Below, piece by piece: positions 7,343 to 54,316 of a stretch of DNA of 64,000 nt; within the stretch, counting starts at the first letter, position 1; every line of letters starts with the position of its first letter. The position numbers and the translations under genes are program-made. Source of the stretch: Octopus vulgaris (lineage: Eukaryota); assembly GCA_951406725.2 (NCBI GenBank), contig OX597820.1, positions 116,808,001 to 116,872,000 of the forward strand, read 5' to 3'. The notes beneath the pieces are model-generated. The model was given only the letters and a program-made list of their open reading frames with translations, did no database searches and was not told where the DNA came from.

Positions 7343-7616
7343 TCCTGATTCTAATATAGTATTAATATATGATTATGCACATAACTCAAAATCCTGACAC
7401 GTTACAGCAATTCTGTGTTCAGATTCGTAATCAGCGAACTCGATTTAGTTTTTAGTACAGAACCATTTGTCTGGGAAACAGGCAAGAAATCTTTCTTTGT
7501 TACCCATTGTTATCTCCCTTGTATAAATTGTCCACTTGCAGATCAAGTTTCAAACATCACTATTATTTTTACTAAAATTTGTGTTTATTTAATATGTATA
7601 ATTGACAACTTGTGGA

Positions 7617-7996
7617 GGCGCAATGGCCCAGTGGTTAGGGCAGCGGACTCGCGGTCGTAGGATCGCGGTTTCGATTCCCAGACCGGGCGCTGTGAGTGTT
7701 TATTGAGCGAAAACACCTAAAGCTCCACAAGGCTCTGGCAGGGGATGGTGGTGATCCCTGCTGTACTCTTTCACCACAACTTTCTCTCACTCTTACTTCC
7801 TGTTTCTGTTGTACCTGTATTTGAAAGGGCCGGCCTTGTCACTCTCTGTGTCACGCTGAATATCCCCGAGAACTACGTTAAGGGTGCACATGTCTGTGGA
7901 GTGTTCAGCCACTTACACGTTAATTTCACGAGCAGGCTGTTCCGTTGATTCGGATCAACCGGAACCCTCGTCGTCGTAACCGACGGAGTGCTTCCA
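7617..7996 (+). mobile_element. tRNA-headed SINE (family C)
   Basis: Near-identical to 1247-1626. Flanked by 12-bp direct repeat ATAATTGACAAC (7598-7609, 8000-8011). Confidence 0.88.
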
Positions 7997-12197: not shown

Positions 12198-12645
12198 TTA
12201 ATTGATAAATTCATATTTAATTAAATCAAGAGGGAGGTGAGGTACTAAATAATGTACGTGAAAATATTCTGATGAATTGAAATTTGTCTCTGACTGAATA
12301 AAAAATTTATTATGTGCAACAGAAGTAGGATTAGTTTAAAATAGCAATTGTATCATACGTAACTCTGTCCTTTAGCTAAGAAGTATGCTTGTATCTTATT
12401 CAGTTTTCCAGGTTGTTTAATGAGAACAAGGTCAGTGTTTCTAATAACACAACTTCTATGCAACACCAATAACAACGATAAGCTCTTATATTGACACAAC
12501 GCTCATTAACGACAAAGAAAATTACGATAATTTGCAATTAATGTATGTCTCTTTTGTAATCCGTTTTAATTATTTCGTTGTTAAAATTATTTTATCAAAG
12601 AAGCAGCTTTAAGAATTAGAATTACTTCCCTTGTCTTCCATTCAG

Positions 12646-14070: not shown

Positions 14071-15069
14071 GGAAGCACGTGTGGTCAGTTCCAGCAAAGA
14101 GCGCAGAGCGACAAGACGTGTTGAATTCATGACAGAGTGACCACTGATTTCGCCGAGGTAAGGCCTTTTGTATTTCTTTCTCCCGTTGCTTCTTTTTCTG
14201 TTGTCCGTTTCCTCCGTCACACTACAATTTGAATTATGGAAGAGAATTGATCGGAGAGGAACTGGTGCTAATGAAGAGAGAAGAAAATGACGACGTATCA
14301 CTTTACTTTAACTCAGGGACATCTTTATGTAATCCATGAAAACATTTGGCAAGTACATAGCCTCATGAAAATGTACAGGTCATTGCTGTAAGCAATGGAG
14401 ATGTAGCATAATTGATAAATGCATATTTAAGTAAAGCAAGAGGGAGGCGAGGTACTAAATAATGTACGTGAAAATATTCTGATGAATTGAAATTTGTCTC
14501 TTTGAGGAACCAAACGAAAACCTAGTGGGAAATGGTTGGCAGCTCTGAAAGTGAAGGGGAGATAATCTCAAGAACTTGTGAATTCATTTCACAAGAATTG
14601 TATTTTGATAACTGCTGACTTTATAATTGTTCTATGTGTATATTCGTTGATTCTTTTACTGGTTTCAGCCACAGGCTGAGGCCATGCTGGGGCACTACCT
14701 TTGTACATTTGATAGATAGATGTCCTGTTGTCTCTGATTCAGTTTGCCTCTAGTAAAGACCTGTGCTGATGGGGAGGCTGCGAGATGTACAGACACAACA
14801 GTTGGAAGTGCAGTGACACAAATCTATAAAAAATGTGGCAGAAAACTTGTTTTAACGTTGTTGTCATGTTTACTTGGACAGAGATTACTTCAGTGGAGTT
14901 TCTTAAGTCAGAGATGCCATGTTTACAAGAGCACTGCTTATCCAGTCCTGTCTGGGAAGGTGCCAGAAAAGATGCCCAAAAACTTGCCTGTCTGCTTATG
15001 CTGGTTGGTTTATTGCGACCAAAAAGTTGTTCAACAAAAATAGGCTTAACACAAAATTTTATTGAAAAG

Positions 15070-20258: not shown

Positions 20259-21262
20259 CAGCTTTCAGTGTGTTAAACTGAAACTGAGGCTGACAGAAAC
20301 TGTGATGAAGCTCGTTGGATGAACAAGTAAGTGAAATTCAGAGCTCCAGTCTGATGACACATTGTGTGGAGCTGTTCTAGTCTTGGAATTAAGTTAAAGA
20401 CATACACACACGTCTGTGGGATACTCAACCACTTACACAGTAATTTAACAAATAGTGTTCAGCAGAATGAACATCAGTTCATTGTTGAAACCAATCGAGG
20501 ATCCATCATCATGTAAGTATCTAGCTATACATACACACACAGGCATATATTGTTGAGGATCCAGGCGTAGGGTGGCTGTGTGGTAAGTAGCTTGCTTACG
20601 AACCACATAGTTCCGGGTTCAATCCCACTGCATGGCACCTTGGGCAAGTGACTTCTACTACAGCCTCGGGCCGACCAAAGCCTTGTGAGTGGATTTGGTA
20701 GATGGAAACTGAAAGAAGCCCGTCGTATATATGTATATACATGTGAATATATGTTTGTGTGTCTGTGTTTGTCTCTCCCACATCGCTTGACAACCAATGC
20801 TGGTGTTTTTACGTCCTCGTAACTTAGCGGTTCGGCAAATGTGCCCAATAGAATAAGTACTGGGCTTACAAAGAATAAAGTCCTGGGATCAATTTGCTCG
20901 ACTAAAGGCGGTGCTCCAGCATGGCCACAGTCAAATGACTGAAACACGTAAAAGAGAGTAAAGAGTATAGCACTGTCTCAATGTTTCTTCCCCTGTCTAT
21001 ACTCAGAGTATGCATACTCACATATGTCATTGGTGTATGCAATCCATCTTAAACTACAACCATACATGTATGTCCCCCCATGTTGTCAATATGCTGATGC
21101 AATCCCACCTCACCTCTCCCTTTGGGGTTTTTTTTTTATCGTTTTAGTTCTTTTTCCTCACACTGCTCCCCCCTTCTCTCTCTCTCTCATTTATTCTGTC
21201 TTCAACCTGAGGATTCGTTCAATTCTTATTGATCAACAATTTAATTTCTCAACCAAAATTGT
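20259..21262. repeat. Composite local duplication: direct copy of 26136-26397 fused to an inverted copy of 27727-28094, later split by a SINE
   Basis: Both matches read directly; the junction shares ATGT at 20511-20514. Confidence 0.92.
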
Positions 21263-23687: not shown

Positions 23688-26600
23688 AAAATGGAAAGGA
23701 ATTCTCTTTGAATAAATTTTGTTAGCAGAAAAACTAGGTAAATCTTTAGAAGAGTATTAAATGCCTCCACCTGCGTAGCTAAAGATGATTGAACAGTAAC
23801 TGATTAGCAAGCGTTAGTTCCTTTGTTTTTTCACTTGAAATCTTTGTAGCAAGCTTAGACAGAAATATGGTAAGTAAAAAAAAAACTTCATTAATAAAAC
23901 TATTACATCACATAAATGCAGAAACTGCAATTAGCAGTCATTAGAACAAAATATTAGTGAAATATTTAGGAAAGAGAAATTATCAATGTTTCTCATTTTA
24001 CAGGATGCACATTTTTTAAAATTTATTTATAGAATATATATATATATACACATATATATATTTTTTTTTACTTTTCACCACCCACTTTATCAGTTTTGAA
24101 CAGAGTCATTAAATCCTAAATAGTATTTAATCCAATGAAAAAAAAAAAAAAAATGTATCAACTGGACAAAATGTGCACATCAAAAATAGCAAATACAAAC
24201 TTTACACCGATTATACACAAAGTTTGGTTTCGGAATTAGTCCATAAACTTCAAAAGGTTTTCTTTAGAAATAAATAAAGGAATAAATACTATAAAAACGT
24301 TTTCCAAGTAGAAAACAAATTGAATCAACAGTTGCTTTGGCAATTTTAGGATGGAATTAGATTTCTTTGTATAGCAATATCTGATTTGATAAATGAAGAA
24401 ATATATTTTCATGGAGAAATGGAATTTTTATTCTAGCACAGATAAATTGTATGAAAATATATATGTTGTACCTACTTTGACTTCATAAGAGAAGAAAATA
24501 ACAGATTTTATACTGAATAGAAATATAGCATTCATAAATACATCAAAGTTCTGACATGGCCTGATAGAATAGTTTTATATTACACATAATATGACAAACA
24601 TGTAGCATGTGTAAGTCTTCATTTACATGGTTATGGAAATCTAGAACCAGAATCTCTAAGACAGTCTCTAAGACACTGAAGTTGAAATTTAAGAAAAAAC
24701 AAATTGAAATGTAGAGAGAAGAGAACATGCTTTTAAAGTCTGTTAGGATAATTAACACACTAATCAACTTGGTTTCTTTAGTTGAATTATTAATTCACTA
24801 TTCTTTGTAATTAGGAATTGGGTGGAATAATAAGAAAGACTCTCAAAAAGCCCAAAGCCAACTTGAGAAATCTCAACAAAGAAATAACTAGGTTAGTTTG
24901 GTTTACAGACATGGAATATTTGATTGGGAATCCTTTGGAATTACCATATTGGGAATCCTTTAGAATTACCATATCTCTGTAGTTAGAGTGAAGTGCTACA
25001 CTATCCATTGAAACTAAACTGTGAGCTTCTGACTCAGTTTTCACCTGAAGAGGATGAAGTGGTAATCCACGTTGCAAAGTACATTGAGCCTCTCTATACA
25101 TTCATTGACAGCCATAAGGTTCTACAAGAGTATGGCATGAATGAAGAAAATTCAAGAATTCACTACTGTTGCTATATCTTTGAAAACCCTCAACCAAATG
25201 TCTTTCTTACCAAGTCTCTCTCTCTCTCTCTTTAGGTGTTAGAAACTGATGTAAACATCATAAAAGTTTAAGTCATCAATCTACCTTAAATTTTCAAAAA
25301 TGCTTAAATCAAATTAATTGGATAAAATAAGTGTTTTTCATGAAATAAATCATTGTATAAAGAATATAGCTGTAAAACTGAAGAGCTCAATAACATCAAA
25401 ATATAGAAACAAAGTAGAAATCAGGTTTGTAGAGACAGCAGCTTATAAATCCGTTAACAGACGAAGTTAACTTCATAAAATTTCTTGCTTGTCAACAAAA
25501 GAAAACCTCTCGAACCAGGAAAAAAAAAATTAGCCATAAGGAAAAGAAAATCAGGTTTGTTTCTTGCTTTCTTAATAAAATAGCAACTCAATAATTATTT
25601 GTGAATAAATAAATTCATAAAGCAGATATTCTCTTCTATCAACACAACAATGACAAAATCGTAATACTAACTTGCAATATAATGCCAATTGTGAAGAGGA
25701 ATTTAACTGTGATTCATCTAAAATATGTGAAGAGGATTGGCGAGTCAAGAATCAAGAAGGTTTTATTAATTTTTTTGTTGTTTGGATAAACTAGAAATAT
25801 AAACACTGGACAAAAATTCAATAAATTCTTAACCAACAACCAATAAAATTTACCTGAAAAGCTAAGTGAGACATATTAGTGTATGAAGGGAAGAGATATT
25901 TAACATTTTAGACAAAAAGGCAAAAAAAAAAAAAAAAAAGGCCTTGTCCACAAAATTAGATATTTCTTCAAATAGGACGTTAACATAACTGATACTTTTT
26001 TCAGAATTTTCCTTGTTGACACAAACACACCACCTGTAGTCTCCTTGAATTCCGACGATTCTGTCTAAAAAGTTATAGACTATAATTCAATAATAATATA
26101 GAGGAACACACACACACAAACATTTAAATAGCACTCAGCTTTCAGTGTGTCTGTGTGTTAAACTGAAACTGAGGCTGACAGAAACTGTGATGAAGCTCGT
26201 TGGATGAACAAGTAAGTGAAATTCAGAGCTCCAGCCTGATGACACATTGTGTGGAGCTGTTCTAGTCTTGGAATTAAGTTAAAGACATACACACGTCTGT
26301 GGAATACTCAACCACTTACACAGTAATTTAACAAATAGTGTTCAGCAGAGTGAACATCAGTTCATTGTTGAAACCAATCGAGGATCCATCATCATGTTTA
26401 CATAGAATGTCGAGTTTTGAGGTATCATGAGGCACTGTGTCTTTGTGCTTGTATGAGGTTCAGCTTTTTCAATTGTGTGTCCCCATGATTGGCCGGGACT
26501 GCAGCTATGATTAAAACCAGTCACAAGACTCACAGTAATGTAGCAAGCAGATAACAAAAGGACAAATCACATCCACAAGTGACGCTAATTTCTACCGATT

Positions 26601-31470: not shown

Positions 31471-31641
31471 TCATTTGTTCTATTTTTTTGTTATTTTTTG
31501 TTAATTTTTCTGTTTCATTTTAAACAATGTCTGCTTTGCTGGTCTATTAAGTAGGGAACTGAGTAGATCCGATGATCCATCTTGTCACGGAATTCCAGAA
31601 AAAGATGAGTGAGTTTTGATGATGAAAACAAAGAATGAATA

Positions 31642-31719
31642 TTACAGAAGCTGACATTTGGTTCTTGGTTTCCTAGGAGGTTGTGGTTGCAAAACTGCTC
31701 TGACTGCTTCTTCAAACAC
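31642..31719 (-). CDS. Mtl: Mtl-like GTPase, terminal coding exon
   Basis: ttttgcag|GTG acceptor. Encodes VFEEAVRAVLQPQPPRKPRTKCQLL-TAA, a polybasic tail plus CAAX box (CQLL, geranylgeranyl type). Confidence 0.95.
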   Translation of the reverse strand: MFEEAVRAVLQPQPPRKPRTKCQLL

Positions 31720-31872
31720 CTGCAAAAAAACAAAAAAACAATGTTTGACACTGGTTTTAATAATTTCCCTTTGGGACACCACCCCAAGGCCATTAATTAT
31801 GCTGGTGAGAAAACAGTCAATTATATTAATGGTGCTTGGTGCTGGTGCCAAATAAAAAGCACCCGGGGTACT

Positions 31873-32075
31873 CAGAAAGAATGATGGGGAGATAGAGAAT
31901 GAAAGAGGGAGAGAACAAGAGAGAAAAGAGAGTAAGAGGGAAAGAGAGAGAGAGAGAGCAAGGAGAGAGAAAAGAGGAGATAGAAAATGCAGAGACTAGC
32001 AAAAGGGAAATGTTTTTCTCTTTATTGAAAAGGGTCTCCAAAAGTGATTAACCTGCTTGAGTCCCCTCTGCGTAA
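31873..32075 (+). repeat. Local direct copy of 36448-36691 (Mtl exon end, donor and intron start)
   Basis: 31971-32075 is identical to the source except at 32048. Confidence 0.95.
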
Positions 32076-33099
32076 AGTGGTTGACAATAGGAAGGGCATC
32101 CAGCTGTAGAAATCAAGCCAAAGTGACAATGGAACTTGGTGTAGCTCCTGTCAAACCATCCAACCCATGCCAGCATGGAAAACGGATGACAAATGATGAT
32201 GATTAGGATTGTGATGATGGTCAGTACTTGAATGGTGTTTGTTTGAAGGATAAAAGGCCAAGTTGACTTCAGCCTCCAGTACCAGAACTAAATATTGCTC
32301 CCAATATAATCTTACGATTGCCACGTCCACCCCAGCTCTACTCACCTGGGACATCTCTTCTATCCATCGTTCCTATTAATCATTCTATCTCTTCCCTACA
32401 GTGAGTAACCATGCAGCTCTTCCACAAGAACCTGTTCTGCCCTATCCCTTTCTCTCATGCTTTAACCCCTCATCCCCTAACATAAAGCTAACCCCCAGCC
32501 CCCACCAGGGTTTAGAGTCTTGGGAACTGCATGGTGACCTCAATAGTGTTGGTGGCATGAAAAACAAAAAGGAGACAGGTTTGCTACAGCTGGATGCCTT
32601 TCCTGTTGCCAATCTGCACCGTTTTGCAAGCAAGGTAATATTTCATGAAAAATTGAAAATAAACAACCTCATTTGTATGATAATGATTCTCATTTACACC
32701 CACCATGTGATGTCTAGACATGGTACACACACACACACAAATATGATGGGCTTCTTTCAGTTTCCATATGCCAAATCCACTCACAAAGCATTGGTTGGTT
32801 CAGGGCGATAGTAGAAGACGCTTATCCAAGGCACTACACAGTGGGACTGATCTCAAGACCACATGCTTGGGAAGCAAGCTTCTTATTTCTTTATTGCCCA
32901 CAAGGGGCTAAACACAGAGGGGACAAATGGATTAAGTCGATTACATTGACCTCCAGTGCGTAACTGGTACTTAATTTATCGACCCCGAAAGGATGAAAGA
33001 CAAAGTCGATTCGGTGTAAAGACAGATGAAATACCACTGAGCATTTCGCCCGGCGTGCTAACGTTTCTGCCAGCTCACTGCCTTTATTTCTCTTTTTAC

Positions 33100-33216
33100 G
33101 TTTACAGCACTAGGTTTCCCAAGCAGTCACCCATCTAAGTACTAACTAGGCTTGACGTTGCTTAACTTTGGTGATTGGACGAGAACCGGTGCTTTCAACA
33201 TGATATGGCCTTAGGT
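33100..33216 (-). pseudogene. 5S rRNA pseudogene in an Mtl intron
   Basis: Minus strand CCTAAGGCCATATCATGTTGAAAGCACCGGTTCTCGTCCAATCACCAAAGTTAAGCAACGTC...AGTACTTAGATGGGTGACTGCTTGGGAA...GTGCTGTAAAC. Full length, with CpG-type decay, followed by an A-run rather than a T terminator. Confidence 0.9.
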
Positions 33217-34468
33217 AAGCCTCTTAATCACACAATTACTTCTTCCCCTGAATAGAAATATTTAATTCTAAATGTCGTCTGCAGCATGTCAGATCAGTTG
33301 GAGAAAGATTGAGGTCTGTCCTAAAGAGAAATCTCTACTACACAACGCTAGAACTAAGTACCGGCATTCATAGAAATTGCTGGAAACTAGAAGAAATTCA
33401 TTGCTTATACTATAGTGTACTCTTCACTGCAGCCATCTGACTTTGGTTTGGCCAGCTTCACATGACTGGTTTGCTTCACAGATCAAAGCGTTGGTTGATG
33501 GTTGATACCGACATATTTGTAACTTGAGTTTCAATATGTTGCATACAATAAGCAGCATGCGAAAACAGCTGCAGAGGAGACAAATGTCAGGTCATTGTGT
33601 ACCACAGACAAGATGACACAGGAATGAAAAGAATGGCAATATGCTGTGCTGCAAACCTGACCCAGCCCAAGCTAGAATAGTGAAGTGGAGGCTAAAAATA
33701 GACAAAGAAAAAAAAAACAACAAAACTGTTTCAACTGATAACAGTGGAAAGCAGAGTGAATATAGATAGAAACATTAACCGTTTCATGTAATTCAATTGA
33801 TTTTAAAATAGTTACGAGTTTTGAACAACCAAAGTAAGCAATGTATGTCGTTGACAGCAAGACACCTGTACCTGCCCCTCTATCACATTTTAATTATCAA
33901 CACCTGGCATAAAGTCACTTCCATCAATACTACTCCCCTTTTCAGTTGAGGGCCCTTGTCTCGCAGGTTACTTGGTGACCTCACTAGTGTTGGTGCTATA
34001 TGAAAAGCACCTGGTATACTGTGTAAGGTGGTTGGTGTCAAGAAGGGCATACAGCTGTGGAAAGCCCAACCAAAGTAGACATTGGAACTTGGTGCAGCAG
34101 TCCTCTTGTTTACCAGCATGGAAAATAGTCATGAAATGATGGAATTGAAAAAGTTTTTGGAACATTATTTTAAGTAGCTTTTAAGTTGTGATGGAAAACT
34201 TCAATTGATACATAACAGGGATTGACAAACAAACATCTCTTCAGTATTTAACCCAACAACCAGCCTCTTATATTCACCTCAAATCCAAAAACCATTTTTA
34301 TTTTCCTCATTTGCAACAACAAATGCAACAGCTCAAATGTCATAATTTTCAACTTGTTTCAATGTTTTGTCTAAAAATTTATAGGAAAATAAAAATAACA
34401 TAACCGTGTGTCATTAAAGTTTTGTCCTTGCCCCATTGAATATTTTTTTTGTTCATCATCAAAACAGG

Positions 34469-34843
34469 TGTAGCAAGGCACAAGAAGCCAGCACCATTTT
34501 GAACAAGATCTCAACTGGTAGCCATTGTCATGTGCGAGACAAGAACAAGATCTCTCCTGCAACCATTTGCCATGAGCGAGATGACAATGAGACTCTCGCC
34601 AGCAATCAGTATTTAAGCAAGAGAACAATGACATTCTCTCTCTCTCTCTTCTCATACTCAACGCCAAGAAACATTGTGAAGCCAGCAGCTCATAACGGAC
34701 TCTTGCCCCACCCTGACTCCACACGCTGCTATAAAGATGGTCACTGAAAGTAAACCACATGAACAAGAACTCTGTGAAATAAACGGCTATTGAATTGTAC
34801 TCCGCTTGTGAACTTCTTCGAGTTCCAGATCCTTGAAACTACA
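34469..34843 (+). mobile_element. Probable solo LTR
   Basis: TGTAG...CTACA termini, TATTTAA box at about 34609, AATAAA at about 34778. No clear TSD. Confidence 0.55.
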
Positions 34844-36668
34844 AAAATAACTATAATGGGAGAAGGAGATATGCCACAGGTACCGTGAACCTTCCATTCC
34901 ATTATACAGGTTTAAATGGAGGTTGAATTTAATTAACATTAAATTTTTGTATCATAAAACCAGGCGTCGTCTCAGGTGAGCTGGTATTATAAAGGTTATG
35001 CATAGATCTCAGAACATGCAGGTATATGGAATTAAAAGGACAGAAAATTTCTACCTGTGCCGGTGGCACGTAAAAGGCACCCACTACACTCACGGAATGG
35101 CTGGCGTTAGGAAAGGCATCCAGCTGTAGAAACTCTGCCAGATCAGACTGGAGCCTGGTGCAGCCTCCCGGCTTCCCAGACCCCAGTCGAACCGTCCAAC
35201 CCGTGCTAGCGCGGAAAACGGACGTTAAACGATGATGATGATGATTGGCTTAACTTTTACTTGACCCCTTAAGAAATTACACAACACTGACTTAGAAAGA
35301 AGACACATTAGATAACATAATCCAAGATAAACATTCATCATTATCATCATCATTGCTTTACTGTCCCCTTTTCCATGCTCACAAGGGTCAGATGTAGTTA
35401 GGTGAGGTGGATTTTCTATGGTTGGATGCTTTTCCTGTCACCAAACCTCACACGTTTCCAATTAAATAATATTTTCCCATGATCAGGCATGCTTTTTATG
35501 GAAGACTGGAAATGAAGGGCACCACGTGCATAATGATAGCATTTACTAACAATTATCACATGATAGGTGTTAGTGAGTGACACACACACACAACGGGCTT
35601 CTTTCAGTTTCTGCCAACCAAATCTACTCAAGGTTTTGGTCAGCCTGGTGCTATGCAAAAAACACTTGGCAAAGGTACCATGCAGTGAGATCGAACCTGA
35701 AACCATATGATTGGGAATGAAACTTCTTACCACATGGCCACACCTATCTAAGAGAAAATCCAAGTCAAAAACTGGTTAAAACTGGAATGTTTTCGATCAG
35801 AGTTAAGCTGCCATTAAGCAAGCTTTCATGATAAACAACAGCATATTGGATGGAGAAAGAGGAAAACTACAAGAACAGAAATGAACGACATTTTTGTTTT
35901 CCTATAAATTTTTGGACAATTCCACGTAAAAAACACCTTCTGAGCATGATTGTTGCCAGAACTACCTGACTGGCTCCTGTGCCGGTTACAAGCACCCACT
36001 ACACTCTCAGAGTGGTTGGCATTAGGAAGAGCATCCAGCTGTAGAAACTTTGCAAGATCAGACTGGAGCCTAGTGCAGCCTTCTGGCTTCCCAGACCCCG
36101 GTCGAACCGTCCAACCCATGCCAGCATGGAAAACGGACGTTAAACGATGATGATGATGTTTAAAGTATTTTTGTTGCTGTTGTTGTTAATGGGGGGAAGT
36201 AAAAATGGTTTTGGTTTTGAGGATGGAATAAGGTGAGGAACGTTCAGTTGAAAACTTGATTTTTTTTTTTGTTTCTTGAAATGCTATCAGCACAAATAAG
36301 TGGAAGTGGTTCACTATGTTTATGTTCTGGAAGATGAGAGATGATGGAGAGGAAGAGAGAAAAGGGTTTACAAGGAGGAAGAGTAGGAGGAGAGATAAAT
36401 GGAGAAAGTGAAAAAGAATGTAGAAAAAAAAACTGAAAGGAGAGAAACAGAAAGAAAGATGGGGAGATAGAGAATGAGAGAGAGAGAGGGGGAGAGAACA
36501 AGAGAGAAAAGAAAGGAAGAGAAAAGAGAGCAAGAGGGAGAGAGAGAGCAAGAGGGAAAGAGAGAGAGAGAGCAAGAAGGAGAGGGAAAGAGGAGATAGA
36601 AAATGCAGAGACTAGCAAAAGGGAAATGTTTTTCTCTTTATTGAAAAGGGTCTCCAAAAGTGACTAAC

Positions 36669-36829
36669 CTGCTTGAGTCCCCTCTGCGTAAGTGCTGAAC
36701 ACTCCATGTATTTCACAGCCCGGACCTTGTTAGCCATCTTGATTCCCTGTTCCCTTTTAATCGGAGATAAACCCTGTGAAGCTAGAGTCCCTATTGCTTC
36801 TTTATTCTCCCGTAAATCTATTTTTGTAC
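36669..36829 (-). CDS. Mtl: Mtl-like GTPase, third visible exon (absent from the ORF track)
   Basis: tttgtag|GT acceptor and CAG|gttagt donor. Encodes TKIDLRENKEAIGTLASQGLSPIKREQGIKMANKVRAVKYMECSALTQRGLKQ (G4 box, Rho insert, G5 CSAL). Confidence 0.95.
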
Positions 36830-37061
36830 CTACAAAAAGAAATAAAAGGAATAAAATTTTAAACTCTACATTTTACCATTTCTTGCTCCAAAGACATAAA
36901 AAAAAAAAGCATCAATTACGACAAAGATTTCAAAGACAAGCGCAAAATAACAAATATTCCGGGGAAAAGAAGAAGAGGAGTAACAGGAAGGACAATTGAC
37001 CAAAACATTACTATTTCTTAACTACCCACAAGGGGCTAAACACAGGGGACAAACAGATTAA

Positions 37062-39532: not shown

Positions 39533-39650
39533 CAACCAATATGATTGGTGCATCTGGACAATGGTGTTTAATCTCTGGGTGCCATTTAGTTAGAACATTT
39601 TCATGTGAAGACGGGCTAACAACACTGAAGCATATCAAAAATACATCAGT
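39533..39650 (-). CDS. Mtl: Mtl-like GTPase, second visible exon
   Basis: ttccag|ACT acceptor and G|gtaagt donor. Encodes [39 protein letters not shown](G); [16 protein letters not shown] is as in Drosophila Mtl. Confidence 0.95.
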
Positions 39651-54201: not shown

Positions 54202-54316
54202 CTGTGGATAGGAAAGGGGTCGTAGGCGGTCGTAGTCCTCTTGACCTGCTGTATCCCAGAGGCCCAGGCTTACTGGTATCAGATCAACCATCATGTTGGC
54301 TGTGTAATTATCAAAT
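54202..54316 (-). CDS. Mtl: Rac-family GTPase Mtl/MIG-2-like, first visible exon (switch I/II)
   Basis: tttcag|A-TTT-GAT acceptor and CAG|gtaagg donor. Encodes [38 protein letters not shown]. The P-loop exon was not found in the window. Confidence 0.95.

Follow-up and report, generated by a model that had tools for sequence, protein, structure and literature searches.

In a 64-kb window of the Octopus vulgaris genome (the whole stretch of DNA analyzed here), the border between exon 4 and intron 4 of a Rac-like GTPase gene has been copied in direct orientation into a repeat 4.6 kb away, within the intron 4 region of the same gene. This insert is likely to be a templated DNA repair patch. On the gene strand, the copied donor and a candidate acceptor in the repeat enclose a 51-nt in-frame segment, and the reading we favor is that a local-template repair insertion probably left behind a silent pseudoexon that the spliceosome skips.

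Self-BLAST of the window paired the segments 31896-32075 and 36510-36691. With a genome search and an alignment, the insert was delimited to 202 nt at 31874..32075 (+), a copy of 243 nt at 36449..36691 (+). The template is the native exon 4/intron 4 border including a GA-rich tract; on the gene strand it holds the final 23 nt of exon 4 followed by the start of intron 4. Of the 200 positions that align between the two (202 versus 243 nt), 195 are identical and 5 mismatched; a further 45 positions are gaps, every one within the GA-rich tract. An earlier note on this DNA had claimed that about 200 bp of the gene's own exon/intron junction were copied into a retroposon 4.6 kb away, and self-BLAST and alignment agree with it. 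Its further statement that the +5 base of the donor is the only difference holds within a hand-picked 105 nt (31971-32075), where the single mismatch is at 32048, but fails for the whole insert, which carries 5 substitutions and several indels. Among the best 40 of 1641 candidates scored in a genome search with the duplication, these two copies were the only full-length matches, and the other matches to the insert were partial and repeat-derived. The native GA-rich tract (window 36448-36587) is labile, being about 55 nt shorter in contigs of organisms B and C.

The insert interrupts a SINE-like repeat. The left part of the repeat lies at 31836..31873 (+), with an approximate left limit, as compared with the intact copies L003, L004, L007 and L008; the right part, at 32076..32205 (+), is antisense to the gene, is the candidate source of the acceptor and ends in a GAT-repeat tail. 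The repeat has a high copy number (a strict pattern finds 28 cores in 704 kb) and a simple-repeat GAT tail, and Rfam found no tRNA over 31500-37000; "family D" is a label from the earlier note, not from a repeat library. Across the insertion site, the four intact relatives and one further copy read GCACCC-N-ACTCTGTAAAGTGG, and the flanks kept in the window are ...TACTC (left) and GTAAAGTGG (right). Compared with these five relatives, from which the empty site was reconstructed in place of the true ancestor, about 1 nt was lost, with no target-site duplication and no poly(A). Four nucleotides, GTAA, at 32072..32075 (+) are common to the template and the repeat at the right joint, where microhomology had been claimed before, and the microhomology at the left joint is 1 nt (one C). 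A 4-nt microhomology at the left joint was considered and rejected, as it came from comparison with the wrong subfamily.

This junction anatomy upholds the earlier proposal for the origin of the insert, namely that the gene's own border was copied into the retroposon with microhomology. In our putative mechanism, a break would have occurred inside the SINE-like repeat, and the broken end reading GTAAAGTG would have paired with a look-alike stretch of exon 4, GTAAGTG. Synthesis on this template would then have added about 200-245 nt, and the new strand would have been rejoined to the other end by synthesis-dependent end joining or by a template switch. The template may have been DNA or unspliced pre-mRNA, which are indistinguishable here. 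The usual polymerase-theta insert is shorter and nearer than about 200 nt from 4.6 kb. A local template, a microhomology-primed copy and a return to the break are shared with synthesis-dependent MMEJ and MMBIR, as set out in the available parts of two accounts (PMC2943611, PMC8421209). On the basis of its junction anatomy against the intact relatives, we place the insert with the class 2 templated sequence insertions of Onozawa and Aplan (PMC5110952), with which, in the available portion of that paper, it shares the lack of target-site duplication and poly(A), microdeletion and microhomology at the joints, and an intronic template. The insertions described there differ in having a distant template and a polymorphic insert, whereas the octopus template lies in the same gene and the octopus insert is common to organisms about 1% apart.

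Relatives were compared in 4 of 24 runs, all as contigs (sets X9, X12, X4 and X7); Logan contigs lose rare variants, and the listing for the joints is dominated by repeat noise. The insert is present in X9, X4 and X7, and an empty allele is absent among the records listed for these four runs. The left joint lies inside record 8 of X4 (organism B) and record 16 of X7 (organism C), both of which span 31530-31927 and so bridge it with 344 and 54 letters on its two sides. None of the contigs listed for B and C extends over 31973-32160, the stretch that holds the copied donor. Organisms B and C differ from the window at 33 of 3372 and 31 of 3458 listed positions (hand-summed), or about 1%. The insert is therefore older than the splits from these organisms, and is neither newborn nor an artefact. 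Looking for the insert in the orthologous intron of relatives, as the earlier note had suggested, thus met with success for the left joint in DNA contigs of organisms B and C; its "newborn exon" is not supported, because the insert is common to both organisms and RNA-like contigs skip the cassette. Record 24 of X9 equals 31862-32057 without any difference, including 32048 (9 letters from the contig end), and is not counted as bridging with just 12 letters left of the left joint. We regard it as very unlikely that the structure arose otherwise than by one repair event, either as an assembly error or as a 4.6-kb tandem duplication later trimmed by deletion. Such readings draw on the right joint, which rests on the assembly with no bridging contig among the records listed, and whose sequence a tandem duplication predicts identically; however, contigs of X4 and X7 cross the left joint, the exact match of X9 record 24 runs through most of the insert, and the two halves of the repeat rejoin within about 1 nt of the intact relatives, which would be rare for two independent events. 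A search of metagenome contigs with the right-joint pattern found no match, which is unsurprising since the collection is microbial.

The host gene encodes a 195-aa Rac-like GTPase (P0001), a putative Mtl by its GDGTVGKT signature. The protein carries a Ras domain (PF00071), its closest solved structures are Rac1/2/3 (Rac1, E 6e-94), and GRPIKCVVVGDGTVGKT is common to P0001 and insect matches at about 80% identity. Its sequence is identical under Octopus vulgaris and O. bimaculoides and across several octopod records; a second, separate Rac-like locus lies on C25. Coding exon 1 is located at L014:3654-3539, outside the window and about 3.6 kb past its end. Within the window, on the minus strand, coding exons 2 (54202..54316) and 3 (39533..39650) were mapped from P0001. 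Exon 4 (36669..36829) is 100% identical to part of P0001 and is covered by RNA-like contigs, and the last coding exon, exon 5 (31642..31719), supplies the remainder of the last helix, a CAAX-type end and the stop, and is joined to exon 4 in X9.

The splice layout described before, with an acceptor from the repeat and the copied donor bounding 51 stop-free nucleotides in phase 0/0, is correct on sequence. The candidate cassette occupies 32053..32103 (-) and encodes LDALPIVNHFTQRGLKQ; its final 23 nt are identical to those of exon 4. Its candidate acceptor, ttgatttctacag at 32104..32129 (-), has 14 pyrimidines in the 20 positions from -23 to -4, and the next AG is only at -33. The copied donor, CAG/GTTAAT at 32047..32055 (-), has A at +5 (32048), compared with G in the native CAG/GTTAGT. 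Paired in register with the genome's own U1, a crude measure of splice strength, the copied donor scores -5.6 kcal/mol with 7 of 9 Watson-Crick matches, and the native exon 4 donor scores -8.2 kcal/mol. Of the three host donors that were scored, this one pairs most weakly, those of exons 2 and 3 reaching -11.5 and -10.7 kcal/mol. Among the 307 GT sites of intron 4, 26 equal or beat the copied donor in U1 pairing, and 3 equal or beat the native one. The host acceptors of exons 2-5 have 13, 18, 17 and 16 pyrimidines in 20 positions, against 14 for the cassette and 11-13 in the repeat family. The cassette acceptor has no competing AG, and it is the cleanest among the five gene-strand family copies in the window. 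In the sampled family, the AG is kept in 23 of 28 cores, and in 18 of these 23, counting the cassette's own copy, an in-frame, stop-free donor equals or surpasses the copied one; pseudoexons of the cassette type are therefore commonplace. An example built from the SINE alone lies in intron 4 at 35055..35123 (-), comprising 69 nt in frame and stop-free, with the donor CAG/GTAGAA at -8.0 kcal/mol.

Other potential splice elements were observed in the same intron. An out-of-frame SINE pseudoexon of 73 nt lies at 35966-36038 (-). The best donor of intron 4 is a perfect consensus site, CAG/GTGAGT, at 32345 (-), with -13.8 kcal/mol; above it, window 32346-32395 (-) holds a 50-nt purine-rich stretch, and there is an AG; an exon here would include a stop and is a possible poison pseudoexon. 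Intron 4 also contains a full-length 5S rRNA-like copy at 33099-33216 (-) (Rfam, 70.9 bits), probably a dispersed pseudogene. Many public octopus models of conserved genes (P0121-P0138, including kinases, myosin VIIa, retinoblastoma, VPS41 and PARN) contain the repeat's antisense peptide, and these are likely annotation artefacts. Of 18 octopus gene models with this peptide, 17 read through the AG and the 18th gave no match; being predictions and not transcripts, they are weak evidence on the use of the AG.

Transcript evidence came from two RNA-like contig sets of one study, X9 and X12, whose RNA status is a guess. Record 23 of X9 is an unbroken 1059-nt contig with a depth of 19.9 in which 31717 and 36667 are directly connected, as expected of canonical splicing from exon 4 to exon 5, and records 1 and 7 of X12 are compatible with the same join. 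Native intron 4 is retained in X12 record 6, and X9 record 24 (organism A) is unspliced across the copied donor. At 36278-36696, an X12 contig keeps the start of native intron 4. Neither cassette inclusion nor either cassette junction was found among the records listed for the two sets. The junction check proposed earlier (36669>32103 and 32053>31719), run here on contigs, thus returned only skipping among the listed records, in a material where rare forms are invisible. The "exon" of the earlier note was not seen spliced in among the listed contigs, and its inclusion is not an observation. Since contigs drop rare forms and only part of the records were listed, a low level of inclusion is compatible with these data. 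At the protein level, 1 of 120 homologues listed is 100% identical to exon 4, and the cluster of that protein consists of one 195-aa member; 0 of 138 proteins fetched contain both LDALP and TQRGLK.

The simplest reading of these data is a silent pseudoexon with a drifted base, which the earlier note did not include. The short exon, the middling acceptor and the weak donor would leave the cassette unrecognized, and the +5 G>A change may belong to the roughly five substitutions acquired by drift since the insertion. A less likely reading, though one that we take seriously, is that the cassette is a minor alternative exon, included at a few percent like exonized Alus. The resulting isoform would have 212 aa, with 17 residues looping out between the G5 motif and the last helix; only a small share of such exons is functional. 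An in-frame, stop-free cassette would not trigger decay, the donor keeps 7 of 9 Watson-Crick matches to U1, and the acceptor stands above the family norm. In the available part of a study of human Alus (PMC2639721), exonizing Alus have a mean inclusion of about 10%, weak donors accompany no or low inclusion, and non-exonizing Alus have weaker splice signals than exonizing ones. The protein model bears on this reading as well. In the alignment-based model of P0001, the last helix spans residues 165-180 with a moderate mean pLDDT of 64 (34 in a single-sequence model), and the splice point after Q170 falls inside it. The claim that 17 residues enter before helix alpha5 is thus wrong about the splice point, but it would hold for the net insert, because the repeated TQRGLKQ of the cassette would rebuild the modelled helix and leave the net extra residues just after the SAL motif. 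Nevertheless, the canonical contig is unbroken, no listed contig shows a cassette junction, no protein with the insert appears among the homologue matches, and the SALTQRGLK region shows little or no variation in the columns shown or counted for 47 of 50 aligned homologues, which argues for tight constraint.

We consider it improbable that the cassette was muted by selection, that is, that the fresh insert with +5 G was included enough to harm the GTPase and that G>A was favored for silencing it. The sole change in the 105 nt does sit at +5, a key donor base, and lowers U1 pairing from -8.2 to -5.6 kcal/mol. Among the 23 sampled AG-keeping family copies, no in-frame donor comes up to -8.2 kcal/mol, although the lead of the original donor over all 23 is just 0.2 kcal/mol by a crude measure. 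In organism B the native donor shows no change (record 15, with one difference, at 36789), so G is ancestral, and the G>A change is not at a CpG. However, the post-hoc chance of a neutral change ranges over 1-21% by framing, the window and the target having been picked after the result was seen: 1.0% for the exact +5 base in 105 nt, 3.8-8.6% for any of 4-9 donor bases in 105 nt, and 2.5-20.8% with all 5 changes in 200 positions, the value for the entire insert being otherwise put at 9.7-20.8%. Moreover, the SINE-only in-frame pseudoexon at -8.0 kcal/mol persists 3 kb away in the same intron. The case for selection on +5 is therefore no more than suggestive. The most far-reaching reading, to which we give very little credence, is a working exon built in one step by repair, with a tissue-restricted 212-aa Mtl isoform carrying the 17-residue loop by the guanine-binding G5 motif, in which +5 G>A brought a harmful, high inclusion down to a minor level that is tolerated. 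Separately, A-to-I editing that would restore G at +5 was rejected: the A is paired at a probability of 0.05-0.22 in four folds, no inverted partner lies over the donor, the region folds no more stably than shuffled sequences (z 0.56), and record 24 of X9 is without a change.

The insert is one of several local duplications in the sampled sequence. With criteria of 80-600 nt, at least 90% identity, a spacing of 0.5-15 kb and uniqueness within the sample, a sample of 704 kb yielded 10 candidate local two-copy duplications, or roughly 10 per Mb; the unselected blocks, 600 kb in all, contributed 6. For two other candidates in the window a genome check confirmed two copies, and the remaining seven are unique only within the sample. 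If donors are assumed to occur once in 15 kb, copied donors might number in the hundreds genome-wide, as a rough inference. The segments 20265-20514 and 26150-26397 form a locus-specific duplication, 98% identical and 5.9 kb apart; beside it, 20967-21262 and 28025-27727 form an inverted one. The arrangement flanks a repeat copy and looks like a complex template-switch event. A 93-nt local duplication, 12199-12291 and 14409-14501, has two copies that are 96% identical, with no further genome match. A third repeat that was checked was rejected as a local duplication and stands outside the 10, since the genome check showed a dispersed family. The segments 1242-1626 and 7612-7995 belong to a young 385-nt dispersed repeat with 39 other scored matches at 98-99% identity (of 2391 candidates).

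Rac1b carries a 19-residue cassette after switch II, with a gain of activity. The octopus candidate resembles that of Rac1b (PDB 1ryf) in being short, in frame and in a GTPase of the Rac family; Rac1b, however, is a proven isoform with its cassette at another site, whereas the octopus candidate would lie beside G5 and the last helix. As in Alu/SINE exonization, in the available part of the source (PMC2639721), the acceptor comes from an antisense intronic repeat, but the octopus candidate donor is a copied own exon border and not a point mutation of the repeat. Since mammals have thousands of lineage-specific exons, according to the accessible part of one preprint (bioRxiv 10.1101/009282), even an included cassette would join a known class. 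Among titles and abstract openings in the open-access literature on octopus or cephalopod exonization, octopus SINEs, partial exon duplication and Mtl naming, neither a copied-donor exon nor this Mtl-gene locus was found.

As it stands, the locus offers little beyond a tidy case of local templated repair in an octopus. Were inclusion true, it would represent a datable one-step birth of an exon, with a copied native donor and a switch of one base, in a protein whose sequence agrees across several octopod records. The frequency of local two-copy duplications suggests that a genome-wide survey of copied donors would test this route of exon birth better than one locus.
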